Source of the DNA: Pseudomonadota bacterium
GTDB lineage: Bacteria; UBA10199; 2-02-FULL-44-16; JAAZCA01
Reading direction: 5' to 3'
DNA: 18,390 nucleotides
NCBI GenBank assembly: GCA_043798915.1
Contig: JAZDOG010000013.1
Location: forward strand, 1-18,390
Position numbers and translations under genes: made by a program. The notes beneath the pieces were generated by a model, which worked only from the letters and a program-made list of their open reading frames with translations, had not been told where the DNA came from and ran no database searches. This document shows, piece by piece, positions 437 through 17,730 of the stretch (the first letter of the stretch is position 1; every line of letters begins with the position of its first letter).

Positions 437-841
437 ATGCCCGTTTCCCTGTCGAAGCAGAACGATTTAAATCAGCGCATGAAGCGGCTCGGGATAAGCG
501 AGAACGACTTGAGGGAGCACTTCGTTCGTTCATCAGGCGCGGGCGGGCAGAATGTAAACAAGGTCTCGACGTGCGTTGTCTTGAAGCACCTCCCCACGGG
601 CATCAAGGTGAAGTGCCAGAGGGAGAGGAGCCAGGCGCTGAACCGTTTCCTCGCGAGGAGGATCCTTGTCGAGAAGCTCGAGCGGAAGATACTGGGCGAG
701 ATGAGCGCGCTGGAACAGAAGATGTGGAAGGTGAGAAAACAGAAGCGCCGCCGTTCGCGCCGCGCGAAGGAGAAGGTGCTTGCCGAAAAGAGGATCCAGT
801 CCGAGAAGAAGCGCCAGCGTGCGGCGGTCAGAGACTCCTAG
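437..841 (+). CDS. Codon-independent peptidyl-tRNA hydrolase / peptide chain release factor-like protein (RF-1 GGQ domain; ArfB or C12orf65-like ribosome rescue factor), 134 aa
   Basis: RSSGAGGQNVNK, HLPTGIKVKCQ and RSQALNR motifs; no codon-recognition domain; very basic C-terminal tail. Confidence 0.9.
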   Translation: MPVSLSKQNDLNQRMKRLGISENDLREHFVRSSGAGGQNVNKVSTCVVLKHLPTGIKVKCQRERSQALNRFLARRILVEKLERKILGEMSALEQKMWKVRKQKRRRSRRAKEKVLAEKRIQSEKKRQRAAVRDS

Positions 842-3621
842 AATATCAAGGCTGGCGCTATCGGGATCGGCGCCAGCGTCGCCGCTGCCGCGCCTGTGAG
901 TATTTCCGCTCCCAGCAAAAATCCTTCATTTTCTGGTTGTGCATGACTCCGATGGCGCGCTAACCATGCCGCCCCATGATGAATGACGCTGCCCATCCTT
1001 CCTGTCTTATGGTTATTGGGCGGCGAGACGCCCGCGACGACCACTTTTGCTTTGACTGTATTTGCTTCGGCTCCGGATCCACCCGGCCCGGCGCCGCCAG
1101 GACCGGCCGACGGGTCGGTCTTCCATTTCGAAGTGTCGATCTTGATCGTGACGCTCATTCCATGGCCCTTGACGGGCGTGTAGGCTATTTGCCACCCATG
1201 CTGTTTGCCGGCCCCTGACGCCGCCGTCGGGATGTCGGCAGCGGTGCCCTTGCCATTGTCCGAGATTTGCAAGGTGATTTCGTTGCCGACGAGCTTGCCG
1301 TCGACGTCGATCAGGCGATAGTCCGCCTTTGGATCGCTATTGTCGACCCTGCCGCGGATCACTTCGTGGATGGTTCGAAGCAGTTCTTTTTGGATATGGT
1401 CAGGCACGGGGAGGGTTATTTCCAGTTTCGCTATGTTGATAGAGACATCGCGGTTTTTCGCATTGCCTGAGTTCAACCATTTCGCGGCTGCGATGAGGCT
1501 GTCGACGCGTGAGAAATTGAGCGAAGCCAGTTTTTTTATATTGGAAATCACCGTCTCCACATGGCTCGCAACCGCCTTCACCCTTTCTGCAGTGGCGGCG
1601 TCGGGTTTTCCAAAAAGCTTTTCGCATTCATCAATCGCGGCCAGCCACTTTTTATGGAGCGGCGCCAGTTTCTCCCGGAGTTTTTTGCCCAGCGCTCCAA
1701 CTTTCTCGTCCAGGGGCTGAAGCCTCGCCCCGAGGAGGGCAAAATCCGCATCATCTCCGGCGGACGGAGCGGATTTTTTCATCGCCGCGGAGGCATCGGG
1801 GATGAGTTCATCGGACAGCCGCCGTTCAAAATCAGACACGATGGATTCGAAGAGCCTTGTCGCGTCCTCGCTCTGAAACAGTTTGACGAGGCGAGTCGGC
1901 CTGTCCATTCCGGAGGCTGAGTCATGGAGGGTCCTCGCGAGAGACATGCTTTCCACCTCGAGCCTTGCGCCGCCCAGCTCCGATCGCCCGGCCTCGATCA
2001 GCGAGTCGATGGCCTCTTCCACCGCCCGGCCCGGTATCGGGTCGGTCGGGATGTAGGGCATGATAGCGCGGAGAGGTCTGGCGTCGTCGGCGGGGCCTGC
2101 GGGAGGAGGGGGGAGTCGCGGGACAGGAGCGCCGTTTGCAATCGCTTTGGCGAGGGCTTCAGACAGGATGATGATTATCTCGGTCCCGCCTTTCGGAGTC
2201 GATTCGACAATCAACTTCCCTCCATTTCTTTCGGCAAGCCGCCGCATAAAGGAAATGCCGCTCGTCGGGGATGGAGCTCGCATTGCCTCATCCGCGTTGA
2301 AACTGCGGCCGTTGTTCATTATCGACAAAAAACTGCCATCCTCTGGCGACGCAATGCTGATTGTGCGCCCATTGGAGGCGCTGGCTTTCTCGGGGTACGC
2401 ATGTTCCAAAGCGTTCGATATAGCCTCGCGCATTATGAAGAACAGATCGACTCCGGCCTGGCCCGACAGGGCAGTGTGTGGCAACCTTTGTATTTTGATT
2501 GCCACCTTGGCCCAGTCCGCATCGTATTGGAGAGAGGCTACGGCAAATTCGACCGCGGACTCCGCGGTCGAGAGGCTGTAGTTGAAAAGCGGACTAAGAT
2601 ACTTGAGGCGAGTTTTATCGTGGGTGATGGGCCCGACGGCGGTTGCGACAGCCGCGAGCGAGAAGACCGCGTTGTAAACCTTGCGCAGCGTCACGGCGGA
2701 GGCGTCGATGGCCTCGTCCCAGCTGTTGGAAAGATTGCCGGGGAAGAATGAAACTATGTTCTTCAGAAGATGGCCAAGCTCAATCACCTCATCGCGGTCC
2801 TTTGTGGCGAGATCATTTGCCCCATCTCTTGCCTTGATAACCGTGGAGGGGCTCTTCACCGACAGCTCTGCCAGTTTGAGCGCCTCGGGAAAACGCTGCT
2901 CCAGGGCGCGCTGTCTGTGTTCTTCTACCACAGAGTCGTGGATGGCCAGCGCCTCTTCGCCATGGAAAAAGTTTGAGACGGATGCAAGTTTTTCGGCGTC
3001 TGTGACCCTCGGGCGGTCCAGTTTTTTCAGCAGTGATCGGACGGCCCTGTTTGCGCGGGGGTCCTTTCCCTCGATTGCCGCAGCCAGCCGATCGAGCCCG
3101 TCATGCGCGGCTTTCAAACGCGGCGCGGCGTCGGCCTCTGAAACGGGCGCCGGCCCCTCGCCGGCCTTTTCCCCACCCGCGAGGAGCAACTTTTTGATTA
3201 CGGAGGCCACTTTTCTGATGTTGTAGATGGTCCATGCCTTCAACAGCAGCGTCGTGCCATAGATCGTGTAACGCCAAACCCTGCCTATTTTGTCGCTTAA
3301 GGAGATATCCGCGCAGTCTTTTGAAATCGAAGACAGGATGCCTGCATCGGGGAGCTTTTTGCAGATCTCGGCGTCCTTTGAATCCTTCGCGCGATGCCTG
3401 TCCTCCGGTTTATACCAGCTGTTGAAGGCATGGCAGAACTCCGCCTCCTGCGACGTATGGAACGGGATGTATGAATGGATATTACGGTAGGCGCTGAGGT
3501 CGATCGCCTTAAGCTTTTCATCCGGGGCGCACCAGGAGAGCGCCTCGCGATCATTTTGTTTGTCGCAGAGATGAGGTTTCAGCTGCCTTATTATATCCGG
3601 CTGGATGTTGAACCTGGCCAT
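838..3621 (-). CDS. Paralog A (927 aa): 4-Cys N-domain, weak membrane helix, two histidine-kinase-derived modules, conserved C-terminal tail
   Basis: Long ORF. Module 1 has the N-box EAISNALEH, a G1-like NNGRSF and GGKLIVESTPKGGT. Module 2 has ISDNGKG and GHGMSVTIKI but a degenerate N-box. N- and C-terminal motifs are shared with the three neighbours. Confidence 0.85.
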   Translation of the reverse strand: MARFNIQPDIIRQLKPHLCDKQNDREALSWCAPDEKLKAIDLSAYRNIHSYIPFHTSQEAEFCHAFNSWYKPEDRHRAKDSKDAEICKKLPDAGILSSISKDCADISLSDKIGRVWRYTIYGTTLLLKAWTIYNIRKVASVIKKLLLAGGEKAGEGPAPVSEADAAPRLKAAHDGLDRLAAAIEGKDPRANRAVRSLLKKLDRPRVTDAEKLASVSNFFHGEEALAIHDSVVEEHRQRALEQRFPEALKLAELSVKSPSTVIKARDGANDLATKDRDEVIELGHLLKNIVSFFPGNLSNSWDEAIDASAVTLRKVYNAVFSLAAVATAVGPITHDKTRLKYLSPLFNYSLSTAESAVEFAVASLQYDADWAKVAIKIQRLPHTALSGQAGVDLFFIMREAISNALEHAYPEKASASNGRTISIASPEDGSFLSIMNNGRSFNADEAMRAPSPTSGISFMRRLAERNGGKLIVESTPKGGTEIIIILSEALAKAIANGAPVPRLPPPPAGPADDARPLRAIMPYIPTDPIPGRAVEEAIDSLIEAGRSELGGARLEVESMSLARTLHDSASGMDRPTRLVKLFQSEDATRLFESIVSDFERRLSDELIPDASAAMKKSAPSAGDDADFALLGARLQPLDEKVGALGKKLREKLAPLHKKWLAAIDECEKLFGKPDAATAERVKAVASHVETVISNIKKLASLNFSRVDSLIAAAKWLNSGNAKNRDVSINIAKLEITLPVPDHIQKELLRTIHEVIRGRVDNSDPKADYRLIDVDGKLVGNEITLQISDNGKGTAADIPTAASGAGKQHGWQIAYTPVKGHGMSVTIKIDTSKWKTDPSAGPGGAGPGGSGAEANTVKAKVVVAGVSPPNNHKTGRMGSVIHHGAAWLARHRSHAQPENEGFLLGAEILTGAAAATLAPIPIAPALIF

Positions 3622-3684
3622 GGCGTCTTCGGCCCTTTTTTCTTGTGCTGCACTGGGACATCTGCCAAAAAGCGTCTTGCAGTC

Positions 3685-3819
3685 GGCGCTTTAAGAAAGG
3701 GCGGTTGGGTCCCATGCGTTCTGACGGCGGAGAACTCCGCCAGGCCCGGAAGGGAGCAACGGTACCCGATCCGTCCAGAAGTGCCGTGGTCAAACCCGGC
3801 CGCCTTTTCTTAAAGCGCC
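3685..3819. repeat. 135-bp intergenic element with 26-bp terminal inverted repeats (MITE-like or structured RNA)
   Basis: ggcgctttaagaaagggcggttgggt (3685-3710) pairs with acccggccgccttttcttaaagcgcc (3794-3819). The 3 non-Watson-Crick positions are all G-U on the + strand. It contains an internal hairpin ggcggag-aa-ctccgcc. Confidence 0.75.
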
Positions 3820-6045
3820 CTAAAATGGCACGGGCAGCGGTGCCGGAATTGCCGCCCCCGCCGCTGTGCCTGTGAATGTTTCCGCGCTCTGCAAAAATCC
3901 TTCATTTTCTGGCTGTGCATGACTCCGATGGCGCGCAAGCCATGCCGCTCCGTGGCGACTGATTCCTTGTGGCGCGCCTTTGACCGACTTTCCTGTCCGG
4001 TGCTGACCGATCGGCGAGACGCCGGCGACGATCACTTTCGCCTTGTCCGCATCCGCCGGGGCTCCGGCTCCATTCGACCCGGTACTTGCAGGCTTCGGCA
4101 CAGCGGATTTTTCTCCGCCGCCCTTCGGGCCCTGCGGTGCCGGGCCTGAATTGGCGGGACTCAGCCTGATTGTCACCGTCGTCCCTTTATTGAAGTCGGA
4201 GCTGTTATTCATCTCCCAGACGTTTTTCTTCACAAGATCCCGCAGGACGACAAGACCCCTCGCAGCGAGTTTCTGGGGATCGGTCGGCACCTCGACCTGG
4301 TATCCTATTCCATTGTCCGCGGCGCTCAGGGTGCCGTCGAAGTAGTCTATCCGAATCAAATGTGCTTTGCTGTACCGCAGCATATTTGACATCAGTATGC
4401 CCATCGCCAGGTAGAGATCGAAGCCCTTTTCCTCGGATATCGGCAATTGCTTCGGCAACTGCAGGACGACCTTGGTATCCTTCAGACCGGCGCTTTGCGT
4501 GATGACCGCGAGTTTAATGATCGAAGCCACGTCCCTGAATGGATTGAAATCAGGTGTCCTCATGGATTCGAGATAATCCTTGGCAAACAGACCCTCTATG
4601 TTTTCAAGTTCGGCCGGAATGACATTCTCCAGGCCTGTGCGGCTTTTGCCGGCGACGCTTATCAGTCCCAATTGCGGGGCTAGCATTTCACGCCACGCCT
4701 GCTGGGGTGAAGGGTCGGCGATTGCGGAGATCGCCGCGTTCATTCTTTCGCCGAGTTCATTGAGACGATTCCTTGCATCGCTTTCCCCGCTGATTATCCC
4801 CAGGATAGCTGAAGATGGTGTCCTGGAAGCCGAGAGGGCGACTCCGCGGGCCATGGCAGGCAGCCACATGTCCTGCGCCTGCCGCATGTATCTCTGGGCG
4901 AGCAAAGAGTATGTCATCCTCAATTCCCCGGAATTCAGATAATCTTTCGCAAGCCTCATCTTGTCGTCATCCGATCGGGCCCCGTCGCCCAGCGCATCGC
5001 TTGCGGTCTGTGCCCTCTCGAGGAGGAATTGCATGCTGGCGAGGTCGTCGGCAGCAGGGGGCTTGGCGGCTATCCTGCTGTCGGAAGCCAGTGCGGCCTC
5101 GAGCGTGTCCGCCAGCATGCCGATCGCGCCGGTTGCCTTGGTGAGCGGCGGGGTGTCCGCGGCTTTTCCAGGATCGGTTGCAGCCGGCGCCTGGTCCGTT
5201 TTCGGCGCGGGGTCCTTAACCCACGCTTCGAGCCACCGGGCGGCGCGACTCCCAAAACCTAGTCTAGCTTTGCGCGATTCTTCCCGACTCTCGTGCGCCG
5301 CATCGAGGGTCTTCGAAAGTTCGCCCTTCTTCAAACGAGTCTTGAAATAAACCCAAACTGCCGTAAGTGCCGTAATGGCCGCTCCCCCAAGCGCGACCGC
5401 GACTATATGCAGCCTGCCCTTGATCCCGGTGTACTCTTTGGCGACCTCTGCGCAGTCGTCGGAGAGCTGCTGGAGTTCAGCGGGATTGCTTGTGACGAGA
5501 CAGGTCTGGGCTATCGCATTGCGGAGCGCCACCTTCTTCTCTTCGATCTGCGCGTTGATCTTCGCGTCGTTGGGTTTCTTCGCCGCCCTGAGCGCGGCCA
5601 GTTCGCTCAAACCCGTGCTGATCAGACGCGCTTTGGCGCGGAATGTATCATCCCCCATCCTGCTGCGCAGGTCGGCCGACACTCCGTCCGTGATCAATTC
5701 GTGGACGTCGGAATATTCCAGGTTTTGCACCGGCGCGCCCTTTTCATCCCGCCCGTCGATGGCCGCCCTGAGTTTTTTCCGCGCGTCGCTCTGGGTGTCG
5801 GCGCAGAAGTGGTTTGTCTCGGTATAGGCTTTGCTGTAGGCGGCGCAGAACAACACCTCAATGGACTTGTCAACTCCCGGCAACCAATCCAGATAGCCCC
5901 TCGACCTGTAGCTTTTAAGATAGCTGTCGATGTTTATGTCCGGCGGTTTGTCGGCGCAGTAGGCCGCGCTCGATCTGTATGAGCCCCTCCCGCAGATGAG
6001 CGGCGAGATTTGTTTCATGAGCTCGGATTTTATGATGCCAGCCAT
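3820..6045 (-). CDS. Paralog B (741 aa): 4-Cys N-domain with insertion, membrane helix, one HATPase_c-like module, conserved C-terminal tail
   Basis: SD (AAGGAG) before the ATG; hydrophobic helix IVAVALGGAAITALTAVWVYF followed by K/R residues; LMSNMLRYS (N-box), ADNGIGY (G1), KGTTVTIRL. Confidence 0.85.
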   Translation of the reverse strand: MAGIIKSELMKQISPLICGRGSYRSSAAYCADKPPDINIDSYLKSYRSRGYLDWLPGVDKSIEVLFCAAYSKAYTETNHFCADTQSDARKKLRAAIDGRDEKGAPVQNLEYSDVHELITDGVSADLRSRMGDDTFRAKARLISTGLSELAALRAAKKPNDAKINAQIEEKKVALRNAIAQTCLVTSNPAELQQLSDDCAEVAKEYTGIKGRLHIVAVALGGAAITALTAVWVYFKTRLKKGELSKTLDAAHESREESRKARLGFGSRAARWLEAWVKDPAPKTDQAPAATDPGKAADTPPLTKATGAIGMLADTLEAALASDSRIAAKPPAADDLASMQFLLERAQTASDALGDGARSDDDKMRLAKDYLNSGELRMTYSLLAQRYMRQAQDMWLPAMARGVALSASRTPSSAILGIISGESDARNRLNELGERMNAAISAIADPSPQQAWREMLAPQLGLISVAGKSRTGLENVIPAELENIEGLFAKDYLESMRTPDFNPFRDVASIIKLAVITQSAGLKDTKVVLQLPKQLPISEEKGFDLYLAMGILMSNMLRYSKAHLIRIDYFDGTLSAADNGIGYQVEVPTDPQKLAARGLVVLRDLVKKNVWEMNNSSDFNKGTTVTIRLSPANSGPAPQGPKGGGEKSAVPKPASTGSNGAGAPADADKAKVIVAGVSPIGQHRTGKSVKGAPQGISRHGAAWLARHRSHAQPENEGFLQSAETFTGTAAGAAIPAPLPVPF

Positions 6046-6058
6046 GGCTGCTCCTTTT

Positions 6059-9000
6059 CTAGAAAACGGGCACGGCCACCACCGGAGGCGGCGGCGCCGG
6101 GGTAATGCCTAAGAACACCTCGGCACCTTGCTGCTGGACATTCGCAGCATCTGGATGCGATTGCTCTGCCATGCGATGTCGCCAGGCTGCGCCGCGGCGC
6201 TTGGAATCAGGCATCGCTATGCGCGGTCTTGACATGCCGGATACGCCGGCGACGACAATGCGCGGAATCCCGGCCGCCGCTGAAGCGCTGCTGGATACTC
6301 CAGTTTTGCCGAGGGCATCGGCGGGTATAGGCGGCGGTGTTTTGCTGCTTCTTGCCGCCCCTGATCCGCCCGACCCGCTTCCGCCTCTGGGCGCGGGGAA
6401 AACGTCCGCTACCCACTCGTCGGCGATGGTCAGCGTTGCCGTTGTTCCTGTTCCTGGTCTGGAAACGATATCGAGTTTCCAGCCCTTTGCGTCGCAGAGT
6501 TTGCGCAACTCAACGATGCTGTTTTCCGCGCCGTTGTAGCCGATGATTATTTTGAGCGCCTTGCCTTCGCGCGCGGCCGAGACCTCGATCTCCGTTGCGC
6601 CGCTGAGCGCCGGATTGCGAATCATCTTGTAGACGATGCGGAAGAGCTGCGGTCCTTCCTTCGAAGGCACGGATATATTCGTCTCGAGTTTCTTGATTCT
6701 GATGCCGGCCTTGTTGGGCTTTTGCGCCGCCAGCAGGTTCAGCATCCTTGCCGACGCAAGGAGGCCGTTCATATTCGAGAGATTGAATTCTGATCTGGCG
6801 AAGGCAGCGCGGATAGCGCTTTGCTTTTCGTCCGGCAGGTGGTGTGACGCTAAAGCGAGGGCATTGAGGACGTGGCCTGTGTCAATTATCACATCGCCCA
6901 TGCGATGCGTCGCTTTGTTGAAAGCCGCTTCGAAACTGTCGCCGGGGACCGTCATTCCGTTCGCAATAGCCGGGATCACAGGCAGGAGCGCTTTCTGAAG
7001 CTTCGCCAGCTGCTCATTCGTTGCGAGGGCCTTATCGATCGCCTCGTGCAAGTCGTCAAGAGTCTTCGCGCCCGCTTGTTCGTCCCCGTTTTTTATATGC
7101 ATGGCGGCCGAGGTCAGCTCGTCCATGGCTTTTGGCACGGTCTCCCCCAGCACAACCTGTTCGAAGCGGGTTGCGAGGTCGCCCATCAGCCCCAGCGTTT
7201 CTTCGCTGCGAAGCATGGGGGCAAGCCTCCCGAGTCTTTCGATGTCGATAATGAGGTTTTTAACCGCTTCAAATCGATCTCCCGGCGGCAATGCTAACTG
7301 TATTTTGTTCCATTGTTTTTGCGCCCAATCCAGCCCGCTTCTGCCGGCGGGCGCGATCGGCAGCGCCACGATGCCTACTGAAGCGTTCGCCTGGGCCGCG
7401 TCGATCCTTTGCTCGGAAATGAGCTGCGCCTGAGCCAGAGCGACCAGCGCATGTATGTGCTCACGCCCGGTCCAGTCTGCCTGCGTCCAATTCATGTCCC
7501 TTCTGTCGTCGAGCGCCTTCGAGAGGGCTTCGGCCCTTGCGTCGCCGGAAATGAGTTGCGCCTGTGCCGCCTCGATCAGCCTGCCCATGGCGGTTTTCAC
7601 CTGCTCGAGCATGGAGGCAACATTCGAGGCGTCGAAATCATTCCGCGGCGCATAGAAATTTTTCGGGGTTGCCGCGGGCAAAACGTCCAGCGCGGACGGC
7701 GTTGAAATCCACGGGAGATCGATTTCCCGTGTGAAAAAACTCATGCCCCGGACGACCACGCCCACCATTATTTTCGGGGAGGCATCGAAATCAGGCGACG
7801 GCGAGACGTTGATGAACATCGACCCCATGATGGTGGTTTCGTCGGTCACCGTTTCGTTGATTACCGCAGCGATCGCTCCCTGGACGGCGATCAGGAGCCC
7901 CATTCGGTTCTCTATGGGCACCTGCGAAGGAATCAATGGCACCTTCATCTCTATTCTCAGCTTTTTTTCAGCGGCGGCATGAATGTTCAGCGCGACCGCG
8001 AGCGCCATGGTGGAATCGAGCCATTCCAGGTCAAGCCTTTTTGATATGGCATATTCGAAGGCCGTTTCTTCGTCCAGTTTGTCCGGGCGGCCCGCTATCG
8101 GCTTGTGCCATTCCGATTCCGGATCCGTTATGGCATCTTCCGCGTAATCTTCGAGTTTGGAATGATTCGGATCCATTGCCCTGGCAAGGGACATCAGCGT
8201 GGTCCGCATCCCGTAGACGAGGGACCCTTCCAACATATCATTCCATCTCGCGGACCATCTCGCGGATCCGCCGATCGACTGCGGCACGGGCGTGGTTTCC
8301 CTGAGGGCCTTGAGGGCCAGGATGATATTTTGAAGCTCTCCAAGCGGTTGCAAACCGCCCTTGAGCAATTGCGACACTACCCAGTCCGCATCGGGGGCGC
8401 TATACGCGCCATCATCAACTGCAGGCGCGTGCCCATCTTTTTTTCCGATTGCCCGGGCAATGGCGTTCGCAATTTCCACCGCTTCTTTCGACAGCGATGC
8501 CTCTTTTTGATGGGCTATAACGACGTCGCCTGTTGTCAGCGTTGCCTTTTTCCGATGGGCTATAACGGCTTCCGCTATTTGGGGGAGCCAGAGTTGGGCA
8601 AATTGAGGCCAGGCGTCTTCTATGATCGACTTAAGCAAGCCGGCGTTCTCATCGGTGAAGAACGACTCCGCGCCGGAGGCTTTGAGCGCCCGCGCCAGCA
8701 GCCGCAATTTTTCGGCGATATCCTTATTCAAATGCAACGGGTCCGCTGTCTCGAGCCGCCCGGCCGCGGCTTCAATTAAAGCGGATAAAGCGGAGGTGCT
8801 GCTGGGAGCTGGCGGCGGCGCTTCGTTCAGGACCGGGGCCGCGGGCAACGCTACCGCTTCGCCTGACTCTGGCGCTGATGAAACCGACGGGGCTGCGGTT
8901 TCCCGTCCGGGTCGGGGTTGACTCCGGACTCCCACCACTATTTTTTTGGGAGCGCCGGAAAGAGGGGAAGTCGAGATATCGATGGTCGCCCCCTTTGGGG

Positions 9001-10648
9001 CGCCTTTGAGTGTCTTGAAAATCGCCTGCTGCATGGCGATCAGGAATCCGATGGGGTTATTCTCCGGCGTCTTCGCGTCAATCGAGGGCATTCTCATCTC
9101 TATTTGCACGCCTTTTCTGGCGGCGAACTGGGCGCTCAGCACGACCGCGAGCGCCATGGTGGAGTCGAGCCACTCCAGATCGAGCCCCCTCGATATGACA
9201 TATCTGAGAGCGGACTCTTCGTTCAGTTTGTCCGGGCGGTTCTCCATCGGCTTGGGCCATTCCGAATCCTGTTTCGATATGGCGTCTATTGCATACCCTT
9301 CGGGCACGTGTGAAGCAGGGATCATCCCACTGCTGATGGATATCAGGGTGTTTCTCATCCCGGCGCCCAGACCCAGGGCCCCTTGCAACAGATTCATCCA
9401 TCTCTTGGATACGCCATTCGGCTGCGGCTCGGCTGCGGCTTTCAGGAGGTCCTCGGTGATATCCCTGAGGTCTTTCAGCGGCAGACCGCTGTATATGAAC
9501 AATTGCAATAATACCCAGTTGGCGTCCTCGTTTTTATCTTTGGTTATTCCGGCATAGGCATCTGCGGTTTCCACCGCACCTTCCGGCAGTGATTGTCGTG
9601 TTCGATGGGCTACAACGACCCCCGCTATTTTGGGAAACCAGAATTTGGCAAATTGAGTCCAGATATCTGCGAGGGCCGACTTGAATATGCCGGTGTTTTT
9701 GTCGTCGCTCAAGAATGCCGCCTCGCCGCCTGAATCCCGGATTGCCTGCAGCAGCAGCGTCAGCTTCGGCTGCATGTCTTCTGGCTCGGGCGCAGCGGCC
9801 GCATGTGCAGCGACGGGTGGCGGTTGAGGCTCGGCAGTTGTCGGCTGAGGTACAGGTGCCGCAGGCAACGCTACCGCTTCGACTCGCACGGGCGTTGATG
9901 AAGTCGACGGGACATCGACTGCCTTCTGTCTGAGCTTGGGAAAGTTCTTGCCAGTTATCACTATCTCAATCTTCTCACCATCAGCATCGTGGCTGACGTG
10001 TGCCTCTCCGCCTAAATCCTGGACCACTCGCAACAGCTGCTGCATTAGATCGACGCCACTGGGTTTTTGTGGCGATTGAGGTACGGCGGCTTGCTGAGGC
10101 GGGGAGGACGGAGGCGGCGCTTTCCTTTTGCCGGGCTTGTCATCATCGCCGCCCTGGTCGTCGTCATACTTGCGTTTCAGGAATATCGACCCCAGCAACG
10201 CCAGAAAGGCAGCGCCCACCACCCACCTGAGGCCGCGCGTCGAAACGTGCTTGAACATGACGTCGTGGCATTCGGCGCCGATCTTTTCGAGTGCGGCAGG
10301 ATCGGCTCCAGAGCGACCGGGGAGGATATTTTTATTGAGAGCGTTGAAGTCCTGGCAGAAGCGCACCTCGACCGGCGTCTCCCAGGAGAGAAGACTCGAT
10401 GTCGGGCTGTAGCTGTCGAGATTCACCGCCTGACGATTATTCCGGTTGCAATATGGGGCATCCTTCCTTCGAGAAGCTTCCTCCGTCGTTTGCTGGCCGG
10501 GTGCCCTGCTGCCAGGACCGCGCCTGTAAAGATTATTGTAGTAATTTTGGGGTTGATAGGGAGGGACAGTGTTCGCCTTTTCCCCTTCGTTGCAGAGGAA
10601 GGGATCGAGTCTTTCAAGCAGTCCGATGTCTATTATACTGCGCGCCAT
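6059..10648 (-). CDS. Paralog C (1529 aa): 4-Cys N-domain, membrane helix, two internally repeated degenerate modules plus a C-terminal pseudo-HATPase, conserved C-terminal tail
   Basis: Long ORF; membrane helix WVVGAAFLALLGSIFL then KRK; LDLEWLDSTMALAV occurs twice; the final module (GWKLDIVSRPGTGTTATLTI) is clearly homologous to the 679-aa neighbour but has GYNG in place of SDNG and lacks the ATP lid. Confidence 0.88.
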   Translation of the reverse strand: MARSIIDIGLLERLDPFLCNEGEKANTVPPYQPQNYYNNLYRRGPGSRAPGQQTTEEASRRKDAPYCNRNNRQAVNLDSYSPTSSLLSWETPVEVRFCQDFNALNKNILPGRSGADPAALEKIGAECHDVMFKHVSTRGLRWVVGAAFLALLGSIFLKRKYDDDQGGDDDKPGKRKAPPPSSPPQQAAVPQSPQKPSGVDLMQQLLRVVQDLGGEAHVSHDADGEKIEIVITGKNFPKLRQKAVDVPSTSSTPVRVEAVALPAAPVPQPTTAEPQPPPVAAHAAAAPEPEDMQPKLTLLLQAIRDSGGEAAFLSDDKNTGIFKSALADIWTQFAKFWFPKIAGVVVAHRTRQSLPEGAVETADAYAGITKDKNEDANWVLLQLFIYSGLPLKDLRDITEDLLKAAAEPQPNGVSKRWMNLLQGALGLGAGMRNTLISISSGMIPASHVPEGYAIDAISKQDSEWPKPMENRPDKLNEESALRYVISRGLDLEWLDSTMALAVVLSAQFAARKGVQIEMRMPSIDAKTPENNPIGFLIAMQQAIFKTLKGAPKGATIDISTSPLSGAPKKIVVGVRSQPRPGRETAAPSVSSAPESGEAVALPAAPVLNEAPPPAPSSTSALSALIEAAAGRLETADPLHLNKDIAEKLRLLARALKASGAESFFTDENAGLLKSIIEDAWPQFAQLWLPQIAEAVIAHRKKATLTTGDVVIAHQKEASLSKEAVEIANAIARAIGKKDGHAPAVDDGAYSAPDADWVVSQLLKGGLQPLGELQNIILALKALRETTPVPQSIGGSARWSARWNDMLEGSLVYGMRTTLMSLARAMDPNHSKLEDYAEDAITDPESEWHKPIAGRPDKLDEETAFEYAISKRLDLEWLDSTMALAVALNIHAAAEKKLRIEMKVPLIPSQVPIENRMGLLIAVQGAIAAVINETVTDETTIMGSMFINVSPSPDFDASPKIMVGVVVRGMSFFTREIDLPWISTPSALDVLPAATPKNFYAPRNDFDASNVASMLEQVKTAMGRLIEAAQAQLISGDARAEALSKALDDRRDMNWTQADWTGREHIHALVALAQAQLISEQRIDAAQANASVGIVALPIAPAGRSGLDWAQKQWNKIQLALPPGDRFEAVKNLIIDIERLGRLAPMLRSEETLGLMGDLATRFEQVVLGETVPKAMDELTSAAMHIKNGDEQAGAKTLDDLHEAIDKALATNEQLAKLQKALLPVIPAIANGMTVPGDSFEAAFNKATHRMGDVIIDTGHVLNALALASHHLPDEKQSAIRAAFARSEFNLSNMNGLLASARMLNLLAAQKPNKAGIRIKKLETNISVPSKEGPQLFRIVYKMIRNPALSGATEIEVSAAREGKALKIIIGYNGAENSIVELRKLCDAKGWKLDIVSRPGTGTTATLTIADEWVADVFPAPRGGSGSGGSGAARSSKTPPPIPADALGKTGVSSSASAAAGIPRIVVAGVSGMSRPRIAMPDSKRRGAAWRHRMAEQSHPDAANVQQQGAEVFLGITPAPPPPVVAVPVF
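7750..9881 (-). repeat. Intragenic tandem duplication, two units of ~320-370 aa (about 9881-8920 and 8861-7750)
   Basis: Identical 18-mer ggcaacgctaccgcttcg (EAVALP) at 9864-9881 and 8844-8861. Shared peptides include SEWxKP, RPDKLxEE and LDLEWLDSTMALAV (9143-9184 and 7994-8035). Boundaries are approximate. Confidence 0.9.
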
Positions 10649-10694
10649 GGATGTGCCTTCCCTTCAATATCGGTCACACGCCTTCCAGTCCCTC

Positions 10695-10725
10695 TTTTCG
10701 CACTATTGCCGAAAAAGTTGCGTGG
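10695..10725 (-). promoter_or_regulatory. Putative sigma28-like promoter of paralog C (and B)
   Basis: The minus strand reads CCACGCAACTTTTtcggcaatagTGCGAAAA. The 13-mer CCACGCAACTTTT is identical to 17695-17707, with the same 14-nt spacing from GCAAC to a CGAnAA box. Confidence 0.45.
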
Positions 10726-10787
10726 TTTTTTTAGATATTTTTTTGGCTCCGCCAGGGGCGTCCCGTTGCCGTTCAATAGTTGCTCAT

Positions 10788-12827
10788 CTAAAGCCCTGGC
10801 ATGGCCATCGGCACGGCCACCGGAGGTGGTGCCGCTGGGATGGCGCCGAAGAGCACCCCGGCGCCGCGCTGCAGGGCGTCCGAGGCATCCGGATGAGATT
10901 GACTTGCCATGATTCTATGTCGCCAGGCTGCGTCGTGTTTCGGGTGGGGTGGCGACATGCGCGGTTTTGACACGCCTCCGGATACGCCGGCGACGACGAT
11001 GCCTGGCGCCATGGCCGCCGCTGAAACGCTGCCGGAATTTCCAGCGCCGCTACCGGCCCCGGGGGAGGCAGGGGTTTTGCCGCTGCCCGTTGCCCATTCA
11101 TCGGCGATCGAGATCATCACCGTTGTTCCCTTTCCCGGTTCGGAAATGATATCGAACTTCCAGCCGTTTGCGCGGCAGAGTTCCCGCAATATGGCGATTC
11201 CGTTTCCCTTTCCAGATTTGCCGGGACTCATGCGCGTGCCATTCATCGCTGCGCGAAGTTCCTCCTTCGTGAGGCCAGGGCCGTTGTCGGAGATGGCGAT
11301 GTTGAGCTTTCCGTCGCTTTGAGAGGCCGTTGCGGTGACCTGTGTGCCGCCGCTGTGCTGCACGGCATTGTAAAAGCCCTCGAATATGAAGCGGAAGAGC
11401 TGCCGTTTTATCTCTGGCGGCACGGCGGCGTCCGTTTCGAGCGCATTGATTTTGATCTGGATATTGCGCCTTTTCGCCTCCTTTTCGCTCAACCAGCGCG
11501 CTGACGCAAAGAGACCATTGATGCTCGACAGGTCAAATTTTAACCCGACCAGGACACTGCGGATAGCTTCTGGATCTTTTTCATCTATAAGAATGGGCAG
11601 CACGGCAATAAGGGGCGAAAGGATGTTGCCCGTGTCGTGGGCCACTCCTCTCAGCTGTTGTATTGCTGCGGCATCCAGGGCCGTCGCGTCGTCGGGGATA
11701 ACCATCCCCCCTTCAACAGCCTGGATTGCAGACAGGAACTTTCTTTTAAACTCCTGCAGTTGCTCCAGCTTCGCATTGATATCTTTGGCCGCGTCATTCG
11801 CTTTTTTGATCCAATTTTTGCCGAATTCCTGATCCCTTCGTCCTATTAAAGAAGCGCCCTGGGTCATCATGGCCATGATGTTTGGCATCGCCTCCTCCAG
11901 CACGATTTTCTCGAAGCGATCCGCGATGATGCGGATGAGATCAGCAGTCTCGCCGCTCCGGAGAAACGGGGCGAGCCTCCCGAGCCTGCCGGCGGCGGTG
12001 AGAAGTCCTCGGCTTGAATCGGTTTGGTATTCCGGCGGGAGCTTATTCCATTCCTTCCGCACCCACTGCTTTTCGTTCTGGCCGGCCTTGATGAACAGCG
12101 CGTTCGACAGCTCCGAAATGCGCGGGTGGTTGACGAACAGGGCCCGCGCCGCATCGACCAGTGCGACGAGGGTTTTTTCCACCTGATCAAGGAGAGGGGC
12201 GACATTCGCGGCGTCGGAGCCCTCCTTGAGCTCGTACATTTCAGGCTGCGTTGGCCGGGGCGTGGAGATAGGATTCGGGTCGTCAGAAGATTCGGCGCCG
12301 GAATTTTTCTTCAAATCCTCCCTCCCTTGAGGGGAGGGAGTCAGAGGGAGGGTGATCTTTCCCATCGAGGGAGAGGGAAAAGAGGAATCAGGTGTGGGGG
12401 GCACGCGCAATGCCGCGTTTTCTTCGGGAGGATCATCGCCGCCGCGGTTGCGCTTCAGGATCTTTAATATCAGCGCCCCCAGGCCCACCGCCAGAATTCC
12501 CGCGCTTACCCTGCCGATGATGCGCACCCTGACGTGCTTTGCCAGGATACTGCCGCAGTCGTCACTTATCTGTTTGAGCGCCGCGGGGCCGGCTCCGGAC
12601 TGGCCGGAGAGAATGTCTCTGTTGAGCGCATTGAAGTCCCGGCAGAAGCGCACCTCGACCGGCGTTTTCCAGACGAGGGCGCTCGACATCGAGCTGTAGC
12701 TCGTGAGGTCCACCGCCTGACGATTTTTCTGATCGCAGTACGGGGCATCCTTCCTTTTGCCTCCTTCGATGCAGAGAAAGCGGTCCAGCTTTTCAAGCAA
12801 TCCGGTGTCGATCACGCTGAGCGTCAT
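10788..12827 (-). CDS. Paralog D (679 aa): membrane-anchored histidine-kinase-like protein with apparently intact motifs, 4-Cys N-domain and conserved C-terminal tail
   Basis: SD AGGAGG; membrane helix IIGRVSAGILAVGLGALILKIL; H-box-like VAHDTGNIL, N-box EGFYNAVQHS, G1 ISDNGPGL, G2 GKGNGIAI, and SEPGKGTTV. Confidence 0.88.
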   Translation of the reverse strand: MTLSVIDTGLLEKLDRFLCIEGGKRKDAPYCDQKNRQAVDLTSYSSMSSALVWKTPVEVRFCRDFNALNRDILSGQSGAGPAALKQISDDCGSILAKHVRVRIIGRVSAGILAVGLGALILKILKRNRGGDDPPEENAALRVPPTPDSSFPSPSMGKITLPLTPSPQGREDLKKNSGAESSDDPNPISTPRPTQPEMYELKEGSDAANVAPLLDQVEKTLVALVDAARALFVNHPRISELSNALFIKAGQNEKQWVRKEWNKLPPEYQTDSSRGLLTAAGRLGRLAPFLRSGETADLIRIIADRFEKIVLEEAMPNIMAMMTQGASLIGRRDQEFGKNWIKKANDAAKDINAKLEQLQEFKRKFLSAIQAVEGGMVIPDDATALDAAAIQQLRGVAHDTGNILSPLIAVLPILIDEKDPEAIRSVLVGLKFDLSSINGLFASARWLSEKEAKRRNIQIKINALETDAAVPPEIKRQLFRFIFEGFYNAVQHSGGTQVTATASQSDGKLNIAISDNGPGLTKEELRAAMNGTRMSPGKSGKGNGIAILRELCRANGWKFDIISEPGKGTTVMISIADEWATGSGKTPASPGAGSGAGNSGSVSAAAMAPGIVVAGVSGGVSKPRMSPPHPKHDAAWRHRIMASQSHPDASDALQRGAGVLFGAIPAAPPPVAVPMAMPGL
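12316..12380 (-). repeat. In-frame REP-like palindromic element in the linker of paralog D (encodes FPSPSMGKITLPLTPSPQGRED)
   Basis: The minus strand reads ttccctctccctcgatgggaaaga-tcaccctccctctgactccctcccctcaagggagggagga, with a 9-bp stem ctccctccc/gggagggag (12318-12340). This segment has no counterpart in paralog C. Confidence 0.65.
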
Positions 12828-12914: not shown

Positions 12915-14630
12915 ATGGCCTATCAGGTTCTCGCCAGAAAGTATCGTCCGCAGCGGTTCTCCCAGGTTGTGGGGCAGGAGCACGTGACGCAGACGCTCAT
13001 GAACGCGCTCGCCGCCGGCCGCCTCCATCACGCCTACCTCTTCGCCGGGGCCCGCGGCACCGGGAAGACCACTGTTGCCCGCATACTGGCTAAAGCCCTC
13101 AACTGCAAGCAGAAAGAAGGCGCTGAGCCTTGCGGGACGTGCATTCCCTGCACCGAGATCACGGGAGGCGCGTCTTTAGACGTCCAGGAGATAGACGGCG
13201 CGTCAAATACAGGCGTGGACGACGTCCGCGAGCTGAGGGAGCATGCCAGATACATGCCGTCGTCCGGAAAATATAAAATATATATCATCGACGAAGTGCA
13301 CATGCTTTCGGGCAGCGCCTTCAACGCGCTGCTGAAGACCCTGGAGGAGCCCCCCGCGCACGTCGTCTTCATCTTCGCCACGACCGAGGCTCACAAGCTG
13401 CCGGCGACGATACTCTCGCGCTGCCAGCGCTACGACTTCCGCAGAATCCCGCTGCAGGCGATGGCCGACACGCTCGGGCGCATCGCCCTGGAGGAAAAAG
13501 TTGCGGTCGACGTTGACGCGCTGAGGCTCATCGCGCGCGAGGCCACCGGTTCCTTGCGCGACGCTGAATCGCTCCTCGACCAGGCGATCGCGTTCTCGGG
13601 TGGAACAGTCAGCGCCGACACGATCAAGGCGATGCTGGGCTTTCTCGACCGCAAGCTCCTCTTCGACGCGGTCGGTGCGGTGATCGCGCGCGATGCGGCG
13701 CGCGCGCTCGCGGTGCTGGACGAGGTCTTCAAACAGGGCGCGGACCTCTCGCGCTTCGCGATGGATATCCTCGAGCTTTTGCGCCACATGCTCGTTCTCG
13801 CCGAGTGCGGGGATGAGAGGGGGGCCGTGGATCTCCTGCCGGACGAGGTGGGGCAGCTCAAGGCGATGCTTGCGGGTAATGCAGTGCGGGGTCCCGAACT
13901 CCATCAGATGTTCTCGCTCTGGTATCGCGTGGCGGAGGATGTCCCGCGATCGCCGTTTCCAAAGATGCTCCTCGAGGTGGGGCTCATGCGCCTCTGCCGT
14001 GTGGGTCCTGTGAAGCCGATCGAAGAGATAATGGCCAGGATAGATGCAGTGATCGAGCAAGGATCAGAGAGCAACCGCCCGCTTCGGGGAGACTCCTCCT
14101 TGGGAGACAACTTCGGAGGGGAAAACCCCCTCCCCACCGCTGGCGCGGCGGTTCCCCTCCCCAGTCTCCCCAGGAGGAATCTCCCCGCGCAGGCGGTTCC
14201 AGAGGTGAGCCCGGCTAAACCGACCTTTGAGCCGGTGGTGTCGCCGCTCGATACTGTCGCGGAAAAGAGGTGGGAGGAGTTCATGCGCTTTCTCGCCACA
14301 GAGAAACCGCAGATCGCCTCGCTCTTCCAGCACGGCGTGCTCGTCGGGATCGACGACGGCGTCGTGAAGGCGACGTTCGACAATCCGCTCTATTCCGACA
14401 TGCTCTCGGAGGCCTCGAGGAAGGCGCAGGTAGAGGGGCTCTTCGAGGCGTTCTTCAAGAGGCCGATGCGCCTCATGGTTGGCCGCAGCGGCGGCCCGTC
14501 TCCGTCCGGCGCGCGCGGCGAGCAGAAAAAGGAGATGATGCGAGAGGCGCTCGGCAGCGACATCGTCCGCCAGGCAGCCGACATATTAAACGCGAGGGTC
14601 CATGAGGTGAAGGTCGAGGGAGAAAAATAA
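12915..14630 (+). CDS. dnaX: DNA polymerase III subunit gamma/tau
   Basis: YQVLARKYRPQ N-terminus, Walker A GARGTGKTT, Zn-binding cysteines, DEVH, SRC motif; followed by ybaB and recR. Confidence 0.99.
   Translation: MAYQVLARKYRPQRFSQVVGQEHVTQTLMNALAAGRLHHAYLFAGARGTGKTTVARILAKALNCKQKEGAEPCGTCIPCTEITGGASLDVQEIDGASNTGVDDVRELREHARYMPSSGKYKIYIIDEVHMLSGSAFNALLKTLEEPPAHVVFIFATTEAHKLPATILSRCQRYDFRRIPLQAMADTLGRIALEEKVAVDVDALRLIAREATGSLRDAESLLDQAIAFSGGTVSADTIKAMLGFLDRKLLFDAVGAVIARDAARALAVLDEVFKQGADLSRFAMDILELLRHMLVLAECGDERGAVDLLPDEVGQLKAMLAGNAVRGPELHQMFSLWYRVAEDVPRSPFPKMLLEVGLMRLCRVGPVKPIEEIMARIDAVIEQGSESNRPLRGDSSLGDNFGGENPLPTAGAAVPLPSLPRRNLPAQAVPEVSPAKPTFEPVVSPLDTVAEKRWEEFMRFLATEKPQIASLFQHGVLVGIDDGVVKATFDNPLYSDMLSEASRKAQVEGLFEAFFKRPMRLMVGRSGGPSPSGARGEQKKEMMREALGSDIVRQAADILNARVHEVKVEGEK
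14073..14198 (+). repeat. 126-nt palindromic element in-frame within the dnaX linker
   Basis: 24-bp arms cggggagactcctccttgggagac (14085-14108) and gtctccccaggaggaatctccccg (14164-14187) with 2 mismatches; outer stem aaccgcc/ggcggtt; inner stem ggaggggaa/ttcccctcc. Confidence 0.8.
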
Positions 14631-14631
14631 A

Positions 14632-14946
14632 ATGGATATGAATGCATTGATGAAGCAGGCGCAGGAGATGCAGGTGGCGATGGCGAAGAAGCAGGAGGAA
14701 CTCGCCGCGCGCACCTTCGAAGCGAGCGCCGGCGGCGGGATGGTGACGGCGGCCGTGAGCGGAAAGCATGAAGTGGTGAAGCTCTCGATAGACCGCTCGA
14801 TCGTCTCAGCCGACGACGTCGGGATGATCGAGGATCTGGTCATCGCGGCCGTCAACGAGGCGTTCAAAAAAGCCAACGATGCCGCGCAGGAGGCCATGTC
14901 TGGAATGATGGGCGGCCTGGGCGGCCTGAAAAACATGTTCGGATGA
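14632..14946 (+). CDS. ybaB: YbaB/EbfC family nucleoid-associated protein
   Basis: MKQAQEMQ, AGGGMVT and EDLVIAAVNEA motifs; canonical position between dnaX and recR. Confidence 0.97.
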   Translation: MDMNALMKQAQEMQVAMAKKQEELAARTFEASAGGGMVTAAVSGKHEVVKLSIDRSIVSADDVGMIEDLVIAAVNEAFKKANDAAQEAMSGMMGGLGGLKNMFG

Positions 14947-14947
14947 C

Positions 14948-15538
14948 ATGACGAATCCAATCGATCGCTTGGTCCATGAACTTGCGAAGCTGCCCGGGAT
15001 CGGGGAGCGCACTGCCACAAGGCTCGCGTTTTTTATTTTGCGCGAGCCGGACGAGTATGCGCGCTCGCTCGCGCAGTCGCTCATCGATGTCAAGGAGCGC
15101 GTCAAGCTCTGCTCGGAATGCTGCAGCCTGACCGAGGCGGACCCGTGCGCAACCTGCCGCGACCAGCGCCGCAACCAGGAAATTCTCTGCGTCGTCGAGG
15201 ATCCGTCGGACATGCTCGCGGTCGAGCGCACGCGCGCCTTCCGCGGCCGCTATCACATCCTGCACGGCGCGCTCTCGCCGCTGGACGGAGTGGGGCCGGA
15301 CGATCTGAAGATCGCCGAGCTCCTCCGCAGGCTCGAGCGCGGCGGCGTGAGCGAGGTGATCGTCGCGACCAACGCGAACGTCGAGGGCGAGGCGACCGCG
15401 CTCTATCTCCAGAAGGTCATCCGGCCGACCGGCATCAGAATCACGCGGCTCTCATCCGGTATCCCCGTCGGCGGCGATCTCGAATACATCGACGCATCCA
15501 CTCTTTCTCGGGCCTTCGAGGAGCGCCGCGAAATCTGA
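14948..15538 (+). CDS. recR: Recombination mediator RecR
   Basis: HhH motif LPGIGERTA, C4 zinc finger, Toprim domain (CVVE, YHILHGALSPLDG, EGEATA). Confidence 0.99.
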   Translation: MTNPIDRLVHELAKLPGIGERTATRLAFFILREPDEYARSLAQSLIDVKERVKLCSECCSLTEADPCATCRDQRRNQEILCVVEDPSDMLAVERTRAFRGRYHILHGALSPLDGVGPDDLKIAELLRRLERGGVSEVIVATNANVEGEATALYLQKVIRPTGIRITRLSSGIPVGGDLEYIDASTLSRAFEERREI

Positions 15539-15626: not shown

Positions 15627-15662
15627 TATAGATGAGAAGGTTTTAGACAATTGGAGGTCCAT

Positions 15663-16235
15663 ATGTCAGTCAACGGCGTTCAACCGATAGCCACTTACGA
15701 CGGCACGAATCCCGCAACATTTAGTCCCAATGATCCGGGCACGGTTGCCGGGGGCAAGCCTGCCGACAAGAAAACGTCTCCAGTCGCAGGTTCGCAAGCG
15801 ATGATGAAAGAGGCGCTGGGGTGGGCATTCGGGAAGGCAACACAACAGATCGGAATGAACCTTCAGCCTCCGTTCAATGGAACCCCTCAAGCCCCGGCCA
15901 ATCAGCAGGTGGCCAAGGAGAAAGAGGGCGGCAACGATAAGGCAAAGCCTGGTATCACCATTGGGACAGCGCCCGAAAAAGAACCTGCGTCTCCCAAAGG
16001 CGCCCCTTCCGACGATAAGGCTGCGCCTGCCGAGCCACCTTATATAGCGCCGGGAGGGGAGGAGATAGTCAATCCAAATGGGCCCGCGCCCTATGCAAAA
16101 GATGTGATGGCAAGCATACCGGCCACGCAGCCAGCGGGTGAACTTGCCCAAATTACTGCTGACAACCACACACTGGCCGAGGTCACACCAGACCCGGACG
16201 CGGCCTTCTTCGCTACTCTATTGGGCCCGCAATAA
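15663..16235 (+). CDS. Hypothetical Pro/Ala/Gly-rich, probably largely disordered protein (190 aa, MSVNGVQP...)
   Basis: GGAGG at 15653-15657 favours the ATG at 15663 over the TTG at 15651. No recognisable domain, signal peptide or membrane helix. Confidence 0.75.
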   Translation: MSVNGVQPIATYDGTNPATFSPNDPGTVAGGKPADKKTSPVAGSQAMMKEALGWAFGKATQQIGMNLQPPFNGTPQAPANQQVAKEKEGGNDKAKPGITIGTAPEKEPASPKGAPSDDKAAPAEPPYIAPGGEEIVNPNGPAPYAKDVMASIPATQPAGELAQITADNHTLAEVTPDPDAAFFATLLGPQ

Positions 16236-17694: not shown

Positions 17695-17725
17695 CCACGC
17701 AACTTTTACAGAAAATTGCCGATAA
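17695..17725 (+). promoter_or_regulatory. Putative sigma28-type promoter for a leaderless gene
   Basis: CCACGCAACTTTT...GCCGATAA (17718-17725), with the ATG 5 nt downstream and no SD. Confidence 0.65.
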
Positions 17726-17730
17726 CAATA

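Follow-up and report, generated by a model that had tools for sequence, protein, structure and literature searches.

Four kinase-derived genes in tandem

The window analyzed here is one entire contig of 18,390 bases (JAZDOG010000013.1) within a 2.34-Mb, 97% complete assembly of a bacterium of the GTDB lineage UBA10199. Its minus strand bears four adjacent, co-oriented open reading frames (ORFs), here called A, B, C, and D, of 927, 741, 1529, and 679 amino acids (aa), which lie exactly where an earlier note, made from the letters of the DNA alone, had placed them. All four encode receptor-like relatives of histidine kinases, and by its motifs only D appears to be a complete kinase; in A, B, and C the kinase fold is retained in degraded form. 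The genes and the two conserved neighbors that frame them are as follows.

Gene A, 838..3621, minus strand: 927 aa; two modules, both incomplete (from the ORF, the family profile, and the motif alignment).
Gene B, 3820..6045, minus strand: 741 aa; long-form sensor domain with 6 Cys, His lost, ATP lid shortened.
Gene C, 6059..10648, minus strand: 1529 aa; pseudokinase-like, three modules, sister of D.
Gene D, 10788..12827, minus strand: 679 aa; sole copy with the full kinase motif set; positional ortholog of genes divergent from dnaX.
arfB-like gene, 437..841, plus strand: RF-1 domain (Pfam, 4e-26); left synteny anchor.
dnaX, 12915..14630, plus strand: identified by Pfam; right synteny anchor, divergent from D.

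The relationship among the four was judged with a family hidden Markov model (HMM) built from 66 relatives, from which the proteins of the window were excluded to avoid circularity. Because this independent HMM matches all four significantly (D at 2e-77; A at 3e-36 and 1.9e-30 for its two modules; B at 3.9e-28; C at 4.4e-26), the sequences identify the genes as true paralogs. The same values dispose of the worry, raised with the earlier note, that the shared motifs might lack statistical significance.

The proteins follow one order of parts: a Cys-rich N-domain, one hydrophobic helix, a helical region carrying an HDxxN motif, then a HATPase_c domain, and finally a disordered Gly/Ser linker that leads into a hydrophobic tail. 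A four-way alignment displays Cys columns near the N-terminus that do not vary, and the tail core VAGVS..AAW..RHR..P is likewise invariant. The common layout described earlier thus stands, with two amendments: the N-domain is not uniformly a 4-Cys domain (D and C have 4 Cys before the helix, A has 5, and B has 6), and the membrane helix is weak in A. The helical plus HATPase-derived module does recur one to three times, as had been read from the sequence, with one copy each in D and B, two in A, and three in C. Pfam detects HATPase_c in A (residues 392–487, 2e-11) and D (475–574, 2.8e-13), only weakly in B (543–629, 0.031, below the cut-off), and not in C, while NCBIfam returns just partial kinase matches on A–D, far under its cut-offs. 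Neither HAMP, PAS, GAF, receiver, nor HisKA domains are found in A–D (Pfam, E ≤ 1), and 0 of the 21 receiver-domain hits in the genome fall on the window contig, in agreement with the earlier observation that no regulator or accessory signaling domain is visible there.

Conserved ends and diverged middles, another feature that had been pointed out, are evident at the nucleotide level, where similarity between the genes is detectable solely at the 5′ and 3′ ends (73–77%). The A and B proteins are ~27% identical outside their tails, and the tail is the main part that they share, at 61% aa identity. Recent gene conversion as the source of the conserved ends is mostly rejected, given that end DNA identity reaches merely 73–77%. 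An exception is a 46-nt run with one difference that is common to the A and B tails (approximately 904–970 and 3886–3952, minus strand), which suggests either that gene conversion acted over a short tract or that the nucleotide sequence itself is constrained.

Gene D retains the full kinase motif set

D was modeled with AlphaFold2 (AF2) from 69 aligned sequences, giving a mean predicted local distance difference test score (pLDDT) of 74.9 that rises to 89–97 over residues 290–580. Its parts are these.

D N-domain, 12522..12827, minus strand: residues 1–102; short form with 4 Cys (C19, C31, C62, C91); AF2 pLDDT mostly 78–94.
D hydrophobic (membrane) helix, 12459..12521, minus strand: residues 103–123; Kyte–Doolittle 2.1; inside a predicted continuous helix, 81–126.
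D predicted helical hairpin, 11583..11831, minus strand: helices 333–374 and 379–415, with His397 of HDxxN; AF2 pLDDT >89.
D catalytic HATPase_c, 11103..11522, minus strand: residues 436–575 (Pfam 475–574); Foldseek matches to ZraS and HK853 at E 6e-9.
D tail, after the Gly/Ser linker, 10791..11009, minus strand: VVAGVS, AAW-RHR, GAGVLFG, and a Pro-rich end.

Aligned to the independent HMM, D keeps every motif, namely H397-D-T-G-N, the N-box Asn, DNGPG, the GKGNG lid, and GKGT. An intact HATPase site, comprising the N-box Asn, a G1 box of the form DxGxG, and the G2/ATP lid, occurs in D alone, and by motifs D is the only catalytically complete kinase of the four. Foldseek matches of its model include ZraS, HK853, DivL, and RetS (E 6e-9 to 3e-7). 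A word-indexed protein search with D returned no family member but D itself, alongside generic kinases at E ≥ 1e-6, and D as the only query found no related loci in a search of genome contigs.

Genes A, B, and C have lost kinase residues

The remaining three genes are divided as follows.

A N-domain, 3283..3621, minus strand: 5 Cys.
A weakly hydrophobic helix at the membrane-helix position, 3166..3282, minus strand: best Kyte–Doolittle window 0.89, no window ≥1.4.
A module-1 HATPase_c, 2161..2448, minus strand: residues 392–487; N-box kept, G1 reads NNGRS, no upstream His.
A module 2, 1042..2025, minus strand: residues 533–860; N-box Asn changed to Gly, ATP lid deleted, His-helix shortened.
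A tail, 841..1059, minus strand.
B N-domain, 5407..6045, minus strand: residues 1–213; 6 Cys; four-helix insert between C4 and C5.
B membrane helix, 5338..5406, minus strand: residues 214–236; Kyte–Doolittle 2.2.
B degenerate HATPase_c, 4159..4419, minus strand: residues 543–629; Pfam E 0.031, below the cut-off.
B tail, 3823..4050, minus strand.
C N-domain and membrane helix, 10169..10648, minus strand: 4 Cys, 36-aa insert between C1 and C2; helix at residues 139–160.
C internal repeat, copy 1, 8789..9781, minus strand: residues 290–620; ends in a truncated HATPase-like piece.
C internal repeat, copy 2, 7649..8788, minus strand: residues 621–1000; 39% identical to copy 1.
C module 3, 6314..7450, minus strand: residues 1067–1445; helical region and degenerate HATPase, 38% identical to D.
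C tail, 6062..6304, minus strand.

Each of the three has lost the His, the ATP lid, or both, and none has a His at the family His column. Alignments of A module 2 show its His displaced by one column, with ~20–29 residues deleted after it. B presents a Ser at this column and has a shortened lid. In C module 3 the column is occupied by Ile (IIDTGH), the G1 box reads GYNGAE, and no lid remains. C modules 1 and 2 are no more than stubs, formed by tandem ~330-aa copies (39% identity, E 3e-64) that each end in the first third of the HATPase fold. With the kinase fold kept and phospho-acceptor or ATP-site residues lost, A, B, and C are pseudo-histidine kinases by the letter of their motifs. The earlier description of the array as repurposed kinases is to this extent borne out, three of the four having lost catalytic or phospho-acceptor residues.

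The insert in the C N-domain (10400–10510, minus strand) consists of 36 residues rich in Gln, Asn, Tyr, Pro, and Gly, and is absent from D and every other aligned N-domain. Co-folding of D residues 285–580 with C residues 1170–1445 gave a score of 0.00 against a mark of 0.32 in a run with no controls, and is counted neither for nor against binding.

A histidine helix predicted to lack its usual partner

Bacteria sense chiefly through histidine kinases, whose core, a dimerization and histidine phosphotransfer (DHp) hairpin plus a catalytic domain, is regarded as nearly invariant. The family profile matches HK853 of Thermotoga maritima over 242 residues (HMMER, E 2e-20), and Pfam finds HATPase_c in 69/69 aligned family members. 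Among these 69, the column counts are 54 for the His, 61 for the Asp that follows it, 67 for the N-box Asn, 69 for the G1 Asp, and 68 for the G1 Gly.

The predicted geometry around the histidine departs from the textbook arrangement. The AF2 model of D has helices at 292–329, 333–374, and 379–415, the last with His397 in its middle, then a 9-residue helix (419–427) and the catalytic domain, so that ~36 residues separate the His from the first catalytic-domain strand. Across the family, the median distance from His to N-box is 91.5 residues (n = 68) versus 101–116 in nine ordinary kinases, the latter being a regular-expression estimate with a possible error of a few residues. A canonical DHp hairpin, with the His on helix 1 and a full helix 2 next, is seen neither in this spacing nor in the model. 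Since the customary following helix is nearly absent, the His helix, H-box-like in sequence, is yet predicted to pair with the helix that precedes it.

Compared with the class I kinases HK853 (PDB 2c2a, 3dge) and ZraS (9jfj), the family is alike in having a HATPase_c with N, G1, and G2 boxes after long paired helices that carry H-D-x-x-N. It differs in its near-absent HisKA match, its shorter His-to-N-box distance, and the modeled pairing of the His helix with the preceding helix, as well as in its N-terminal Cys-rich sensor, its long disordered linker and tail, and the lack of an adjacent regulator.

The His itself is not universal. At the HDxxN column, 15 of the 69 members have another residue (Arg in five, Gln in three, Tyr in two, Ser in one, and others), and these keep the ATP-binding boxes. 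The Tyr-bearing members recall DivL of Caulobacter, a histidine-kinase fold without the phospho-acceptor histidine that acts as a signaling scaffold, and DivL (PDB 4q20) is in both the family-profile and Foldseek match lists. The likeness extends to the His-less kinase fold and the two members with Tyr at the His column; on the other hand, DivL comes from one conserved gene, not from a tandem array, and has PAS domains, and A, B, and C have a degraded ATP site too. Conceivably, all four proteins, D included, signal without phosphotransfer, as ATP-binding or scaffold receptors whose output runs through the tail and protein contacts in a DivL-like manner. Such a function would accommodate the His-less members with their conserved ATP-binding boxes, two of them with Tyr, as well as the non-canonical His region, the absence of a linked regulator, and a tail that is the most conserved cytoplasmic part in this genome. 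However, a His in 54/69 members and the next Asp in 61/69 are hard to explain without catalysis, and D and the single-copy orthologs described below retain every box; signaling wholly free of phosphotransfer is thus considered unlikely, if a serious contender.

The Cys-rich N-domain and membrane topology

Six Cys are the norm for the N-domain of the family, and they stand at fixed places in ~16 of the 22 N-domain proteins listed. Where Cys are missing, they tend to be missing in twos: C4 and C5 are both absent from C and D, and C3 and C6 from the outside protein P0048, while A and another outside protein, P0021, break this pairing. Over 21 proteins, the part preceding the helix has 2.84 Cys per 100 aa and the part following it 0.13. 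CxxC-type spacing is absent from the pattern.

The N-domain of B, modeled by AF2 over residues 1–245 from 21 aligned sequences (pLDDT 90, predicted template-modeling score 0.77), is mainly helical. Two short strands, 81–83 and 180–182, bear C81 and C182 (that is, C4 and C5), and the last helix, 188–239, enters the membrane segment. The domain resembles nothing in the collections searched. Neither it nor the tail has a Pfam or NCBIfam match; Foldseek against the PDB gave 0 matches at E ≤ 0.001 for the B N-domain; the best hit of a wide structural search (Z 7.3) covers only the helical insert at 83–183 and is within the range of generic helical bundles; and in the ESM Atlas template-modeling scores were ≤0.35, with nothing usable. 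The earlier note did not recognize the architecture of these kinase-derived proteins, and none of the libraries searched describes it. B, C, and D have a clearly hydrophobic membrane helix; hydrophobicity is weak in A and low also in relatives from two other genera (genomes G004 and G008), and the Kyte–Doolittle value of the helix is at least 1.5 in 15/21 proteins.

Because Cys are concentrated before the helix and lost in pairs, and because C4 and C5 lie on the two strands of the model, the N-domain is probably disulfide-bonded and located outside the cytoplasmic membrane. The ATP-using part is probably cytoplasmic, since the ATP-binding residues are conserved in 67–69 of the 69 members. Alternatively, the Cys-rich domain might itself be cytoplasmic, a redox or metal-binding sensor, with the helix serving as a membrane-associated or dimerization element and not as a true span. 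A–D have no signal peptide, the positive-inside signal is weak, and the helix of A and of the G004 and G008 relatives is of low hydrophobicity, all of which such a sensor would explain. Yet 15/21 helices do reach 1.5, paired Cys loss fits disulfides better than a metal site, and the Cys lack CxxC-type spacing, making a cytoplasmic location rather improbable.

A rare family and an old array

A profile search of 1.84 billion representative proteins retrieved 71 clusters at E ≤ 1e-30, of which ~20 match from the N-domain onward. Within the phylum of the organism, represented by 93 species genomes that all belong to one class, the family profile is positive in 10 (E ≤ 1e-25). Eight of these 10 belong to the organism's own family, of which 12 further genomes were included, and the single match outside that family covers the catalytic domain only. 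The N-domain profile is positive in 4/93, all in the organism's family. As far as these sequences tell, the kinase family is small and, among the genomes searched, all but restricted to a single family within one phylum-level lineage. It also includes shorter, soluble forms that lack the N-domain and helix. A metagenome scan with the His-less subgroup gave 594 pattern matches, none of which was confirmed. Pfam, NCBIfam, PDB, and Atlas hold no description of the kinase family, its N-domain, its short His region, or its tail, no literature search having been aimed at the family.

The position of the locus is shared. In three other genera (G004, G008, and G009) a single family gene is divergent from dnaX, and in G004 an arfB-type gene follows it. 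The window retains this frame of arfB, family genes, and dnaX, with four genes instead of one and D nearest dnaX; on the D side of the array, dnaX, ybaB, and recR together occupy 12915–15538. The single-copy orthologs of G003, G004, and G008 retain HDxxN, the N-box, and DNGxG. A second locus of the same genome, on contig 27 (8234–12575, minus strand), encodes a tandem pair of soluble, multi-module paralogs, 721 and 718 aa long, with the same tail; they contain repeated helical modules and degenerate HATPase pieces, have no Cys, and lie with a YceG/MltG-type gene on one side and an amidohydrolase gene on the other. This locus recurs in G003. A weak second match of the N-domain profile (E 0.003) lies at 1813–2040 of contig 206 of G008, in a 717-aa frame, and may represent a diverged extra paralog.

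A maximum-likelihood tree of 27 rows, comprising the N-domain proteins from the representative search and five soluble members, with C entered as its C-terminal module only and every other row retained, joins C and D at 100/100. Their pair is sister, at 96/98, to an outside, His-less clade of P0028, P0033, and P0048. B groups with the outside proteins P0058 and P0108 at 99/98, whereas A has no resolved place within a 16-row clade; long branches (A, B, and P0108) leave the exact placements unsure. Of the two subfamilies proposed earlier, C/D is therefore upheld, and A/B is not, as the tree does not join A with B. Since B and C/D sit in separate, well-supported subclades that hold outside proteins, divergence of the paralogs appears mostly old. 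The array looks like a set of mostly old retained paralogs and not a fresh burst, with only C/D a later duplication, which speaks against the notion of an expanding family. By their Cys and motif patterns, B retains the ancestral long 6-Cys sensor without the His, and D retains the chemistry with a shortened 4-Cys sensor.

The same age bears on the suggestion that A, B, and C are decaying duplicates without function. The loss of catalytic residues from all three is what decay would produce. Their frames, however, are long and intact (741–1529 aa), and conservation extends to the Cys pattern, the helix, and the tail. B and C/D fall in old subclades that include outside proteins, and C gained and kept an internal duplication. 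Functionless decay is accordingly regarded as very unlikely.

The C-terminal tail

In the AF2 model of D, residues 586–679, a Gly/Ser/Pro-rich stretch and the tail, are predicted to be disordered (pLDDT <50). Two micro-motifs recur family-wide in the tail: hydrophobic-(A/G)-G-hydrophobic, which directly follows the linker and reads VVAGVS here, and, close to the end, G-x-(G/E)-h-h-x-G. The tail finishes in a hydrophobic, often Pro-rich C-terminus; over the last 40 residues, the best 15-residue hydrophobicity is at least 1.0 in 48/69 members and at least 1.5 in 20/69. Six proteins of the genome have this tail in common, including the two soluble contig-27 paralogs, and Phe is the final residue in 4/6.

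A C-terminal sorting signal of the PEP-CTERM, GlyGly-CTERM, or MYXO-CTERM type is rejected, as no tail has an NCBIfam match at E ≤ 1. In addition, the N-termini are not those of sorted proteins, being not hydrophobic, and the basic cluster precedes the hydrophobic tail end instead of following it. By analogy, the tail is most likely a motif for docking a partner or for membrane association. Tethering peptides at the ends of disordered linkers are well known, from the chemoreceptor NWETF pentapeptide to the C-terminal tips of SSB and FtsZ. These are alike in having a flexible, low-complexity linker followed by a short, conserved, hydrophobic C-terminal motif; they differ in showing no sequence similarity to the present tail, which is longer and has two micro-motifs.

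The earlier note also voiced the idea that the proteins could be exported effectors that disturb signaling in a host or prey cell. Only the C-terminal tail and the small 2.34-Mb genome would point that way. The proteins have no signal peptide and a membrane helix after the N-domain, no secretion genes are present in the window, and the tails give no NCBIfam sorting-signal match. Moreover, positional orthologs are intact, single-copy kinase genes between the housekeeping genes dnaX and arfB, and ATP-binding residues are conserved. An effector role is highly improbable.

How the array may work

The explanation that we favor, with confidence about evenly divided between belief and doubt, is that D is a live sensor kinase and that A, B, and C act beside it as pseudokinase co-sensors, modulating D or sharing the partner of its tail, with an unlinked regulator carrying the output. 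The Cys-rich helical domain, disulfide-bonded and outside the cytoplasmic membrane, would receive the input, and one membrane helix would link it to the cytoplasmic helical region. There, the last long helix would present the phospho-acceptor motif HDxxN to a HATPase_c that binds ATP, while the disordered Gly/Ser linker and short hydrophobic tail would tether a partner or the membrane. What was presumably a single ancestral slot between arfB and dnaX now holds four paralogs. Because A, B, and C keep sensor, helix, fold, and tail while the His and/or the ATP lid are lost, they are best understood as pseudokinase co-receptors, which would detect different inputs and either modulate D or vie with it for the partner of the tail. 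The output of D would pass to a response regulator encoded elsewhere, given that none of the receiver hits is on the contig.

Several observations sit poorly with this explanation. An N-terminal domain of 100–260 aa would have to cross the membrane with no signal peptide. The positive-inside signal is weak, with 77 Lys and Arg after the helix versus 64 before, and an excess after the helix in just 12/21 proteins; the helix is also poorly hydrophobic in A and some relatives. Pfam HisKA matches only 2/69 members, both below the cut-off, so that the His region is no recognizable HisKA, and HMMER places the family His helix on helix 2 of HK853 and not on its H-box; the two weak Pfam matches do align Pfam's His with the family His. 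Phosphorylation of His397 is something that we infer from sequence. No cognate regulator turned up beside the array in the receiver census of the genome, and none is seen beside family orthologs in the 8 context loci listed. Finally, D is motif-complete and would need no partner, and the pseudokinases could act on their own.

Two known systems show how kinase-like proteins can act on one another. In Pseudomonas aeruginosa, RetS is reported to block GacS via a DHp–DHp heterodimer (PMC8498467), and RetS (6dk7) is among the fold matches of the D model. A kinase-family protein that modulates another through dimerization helices, with several inputs converging on one output, is the likeness; RetS and GacS are unlinked, distant hybrid kinases, whereas the proposed partners here are tandem paralogs. 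A closer parallel in gene order is FasB/FasC of group A Streptococcus, adjacent kinase-like paralogs that heterodimerize (PMC12675982). The Fas pair is reported to act jointly with parts of each dispensable, but its losses are complementary, FasC having lost the histidine and FasB the kinase domain, and its operon includes a regulator gene, fasA. D, in contrast, lacks no motif, and no regulator is linked to it. An obligate heterodimer of the FasB/FasC type, founded on complementary loss, is not what the motifs show, as D has every one of them.

A bolder proposal would make these proteins a new receptor-kinase class: a disulfide-knotted sensor exported N-terminus first without a signal peptide, a rewired bundle whose His helix pairs with the helix before it and not with the one after, and a tail that docks all paralogs of the genome, membrane-bound and soluble, on one partner. 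The four genes would then encode the subunits of a heteromeric receptor, an array of the kind also considered in the earlier note, three of them dead and gating the one live kinase. Taken as a whole, this is speculative and we think it unlikely to be right in full.

Other features of the window

The stop-codon region of gene A (minus strand) overlaps the final 4 nt of the convergent arfB-type gene, at 838–841. A scan for promoter-like and terminator-like sites gave no signal (2 versus 3.9 expected and 17 versus 17.1 expected, respectively). Past recR, a 194-aa Pro/Ala/Gly-rich protein without a Pfam match is encoded at 15651–16235 (plus strand). The region 16490–17600 (plus strand) encodes a 261-aa protein with HTH_3 (7e-16) and SocA/Panacea antitoxin (2e-18) domains, whose ORF overlaps by 11 nt a 111-aa ORF without a Pfam match; by its domains, the pair looks like a Panacea-type toxin–antitoxin pair. 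G+C content there is 0.49–0.53 versus 0.56–0.64 in the rest of the window. A 225-aa ORF without a Pfam match, at 17716–18390 (plus strand), is open-ended at the contig end.

Significance

Membership in the histidine-kinase superfamily and kinase/pseudokinase paralogy are of a known kind; what is new at the sequence level is two modules, the Cys-rich sensor domain and the tail. The family, found in uncultured organisms, is rare, and what is said of its function is inferred throughout. If the predicted geometry is true, these proteins would be a natural altered-core kinase, useful for understanding how a catalytic domain reaches its histidine. The locus is likewise a natural dissection series: a complete kinase in D, a dead ATP site with duplicated stubs in C, an ancestral sensor without the His in B, and a two-module form in A. 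As such, this four-gene series offers a way to study the role of kinase-dead paralogs.

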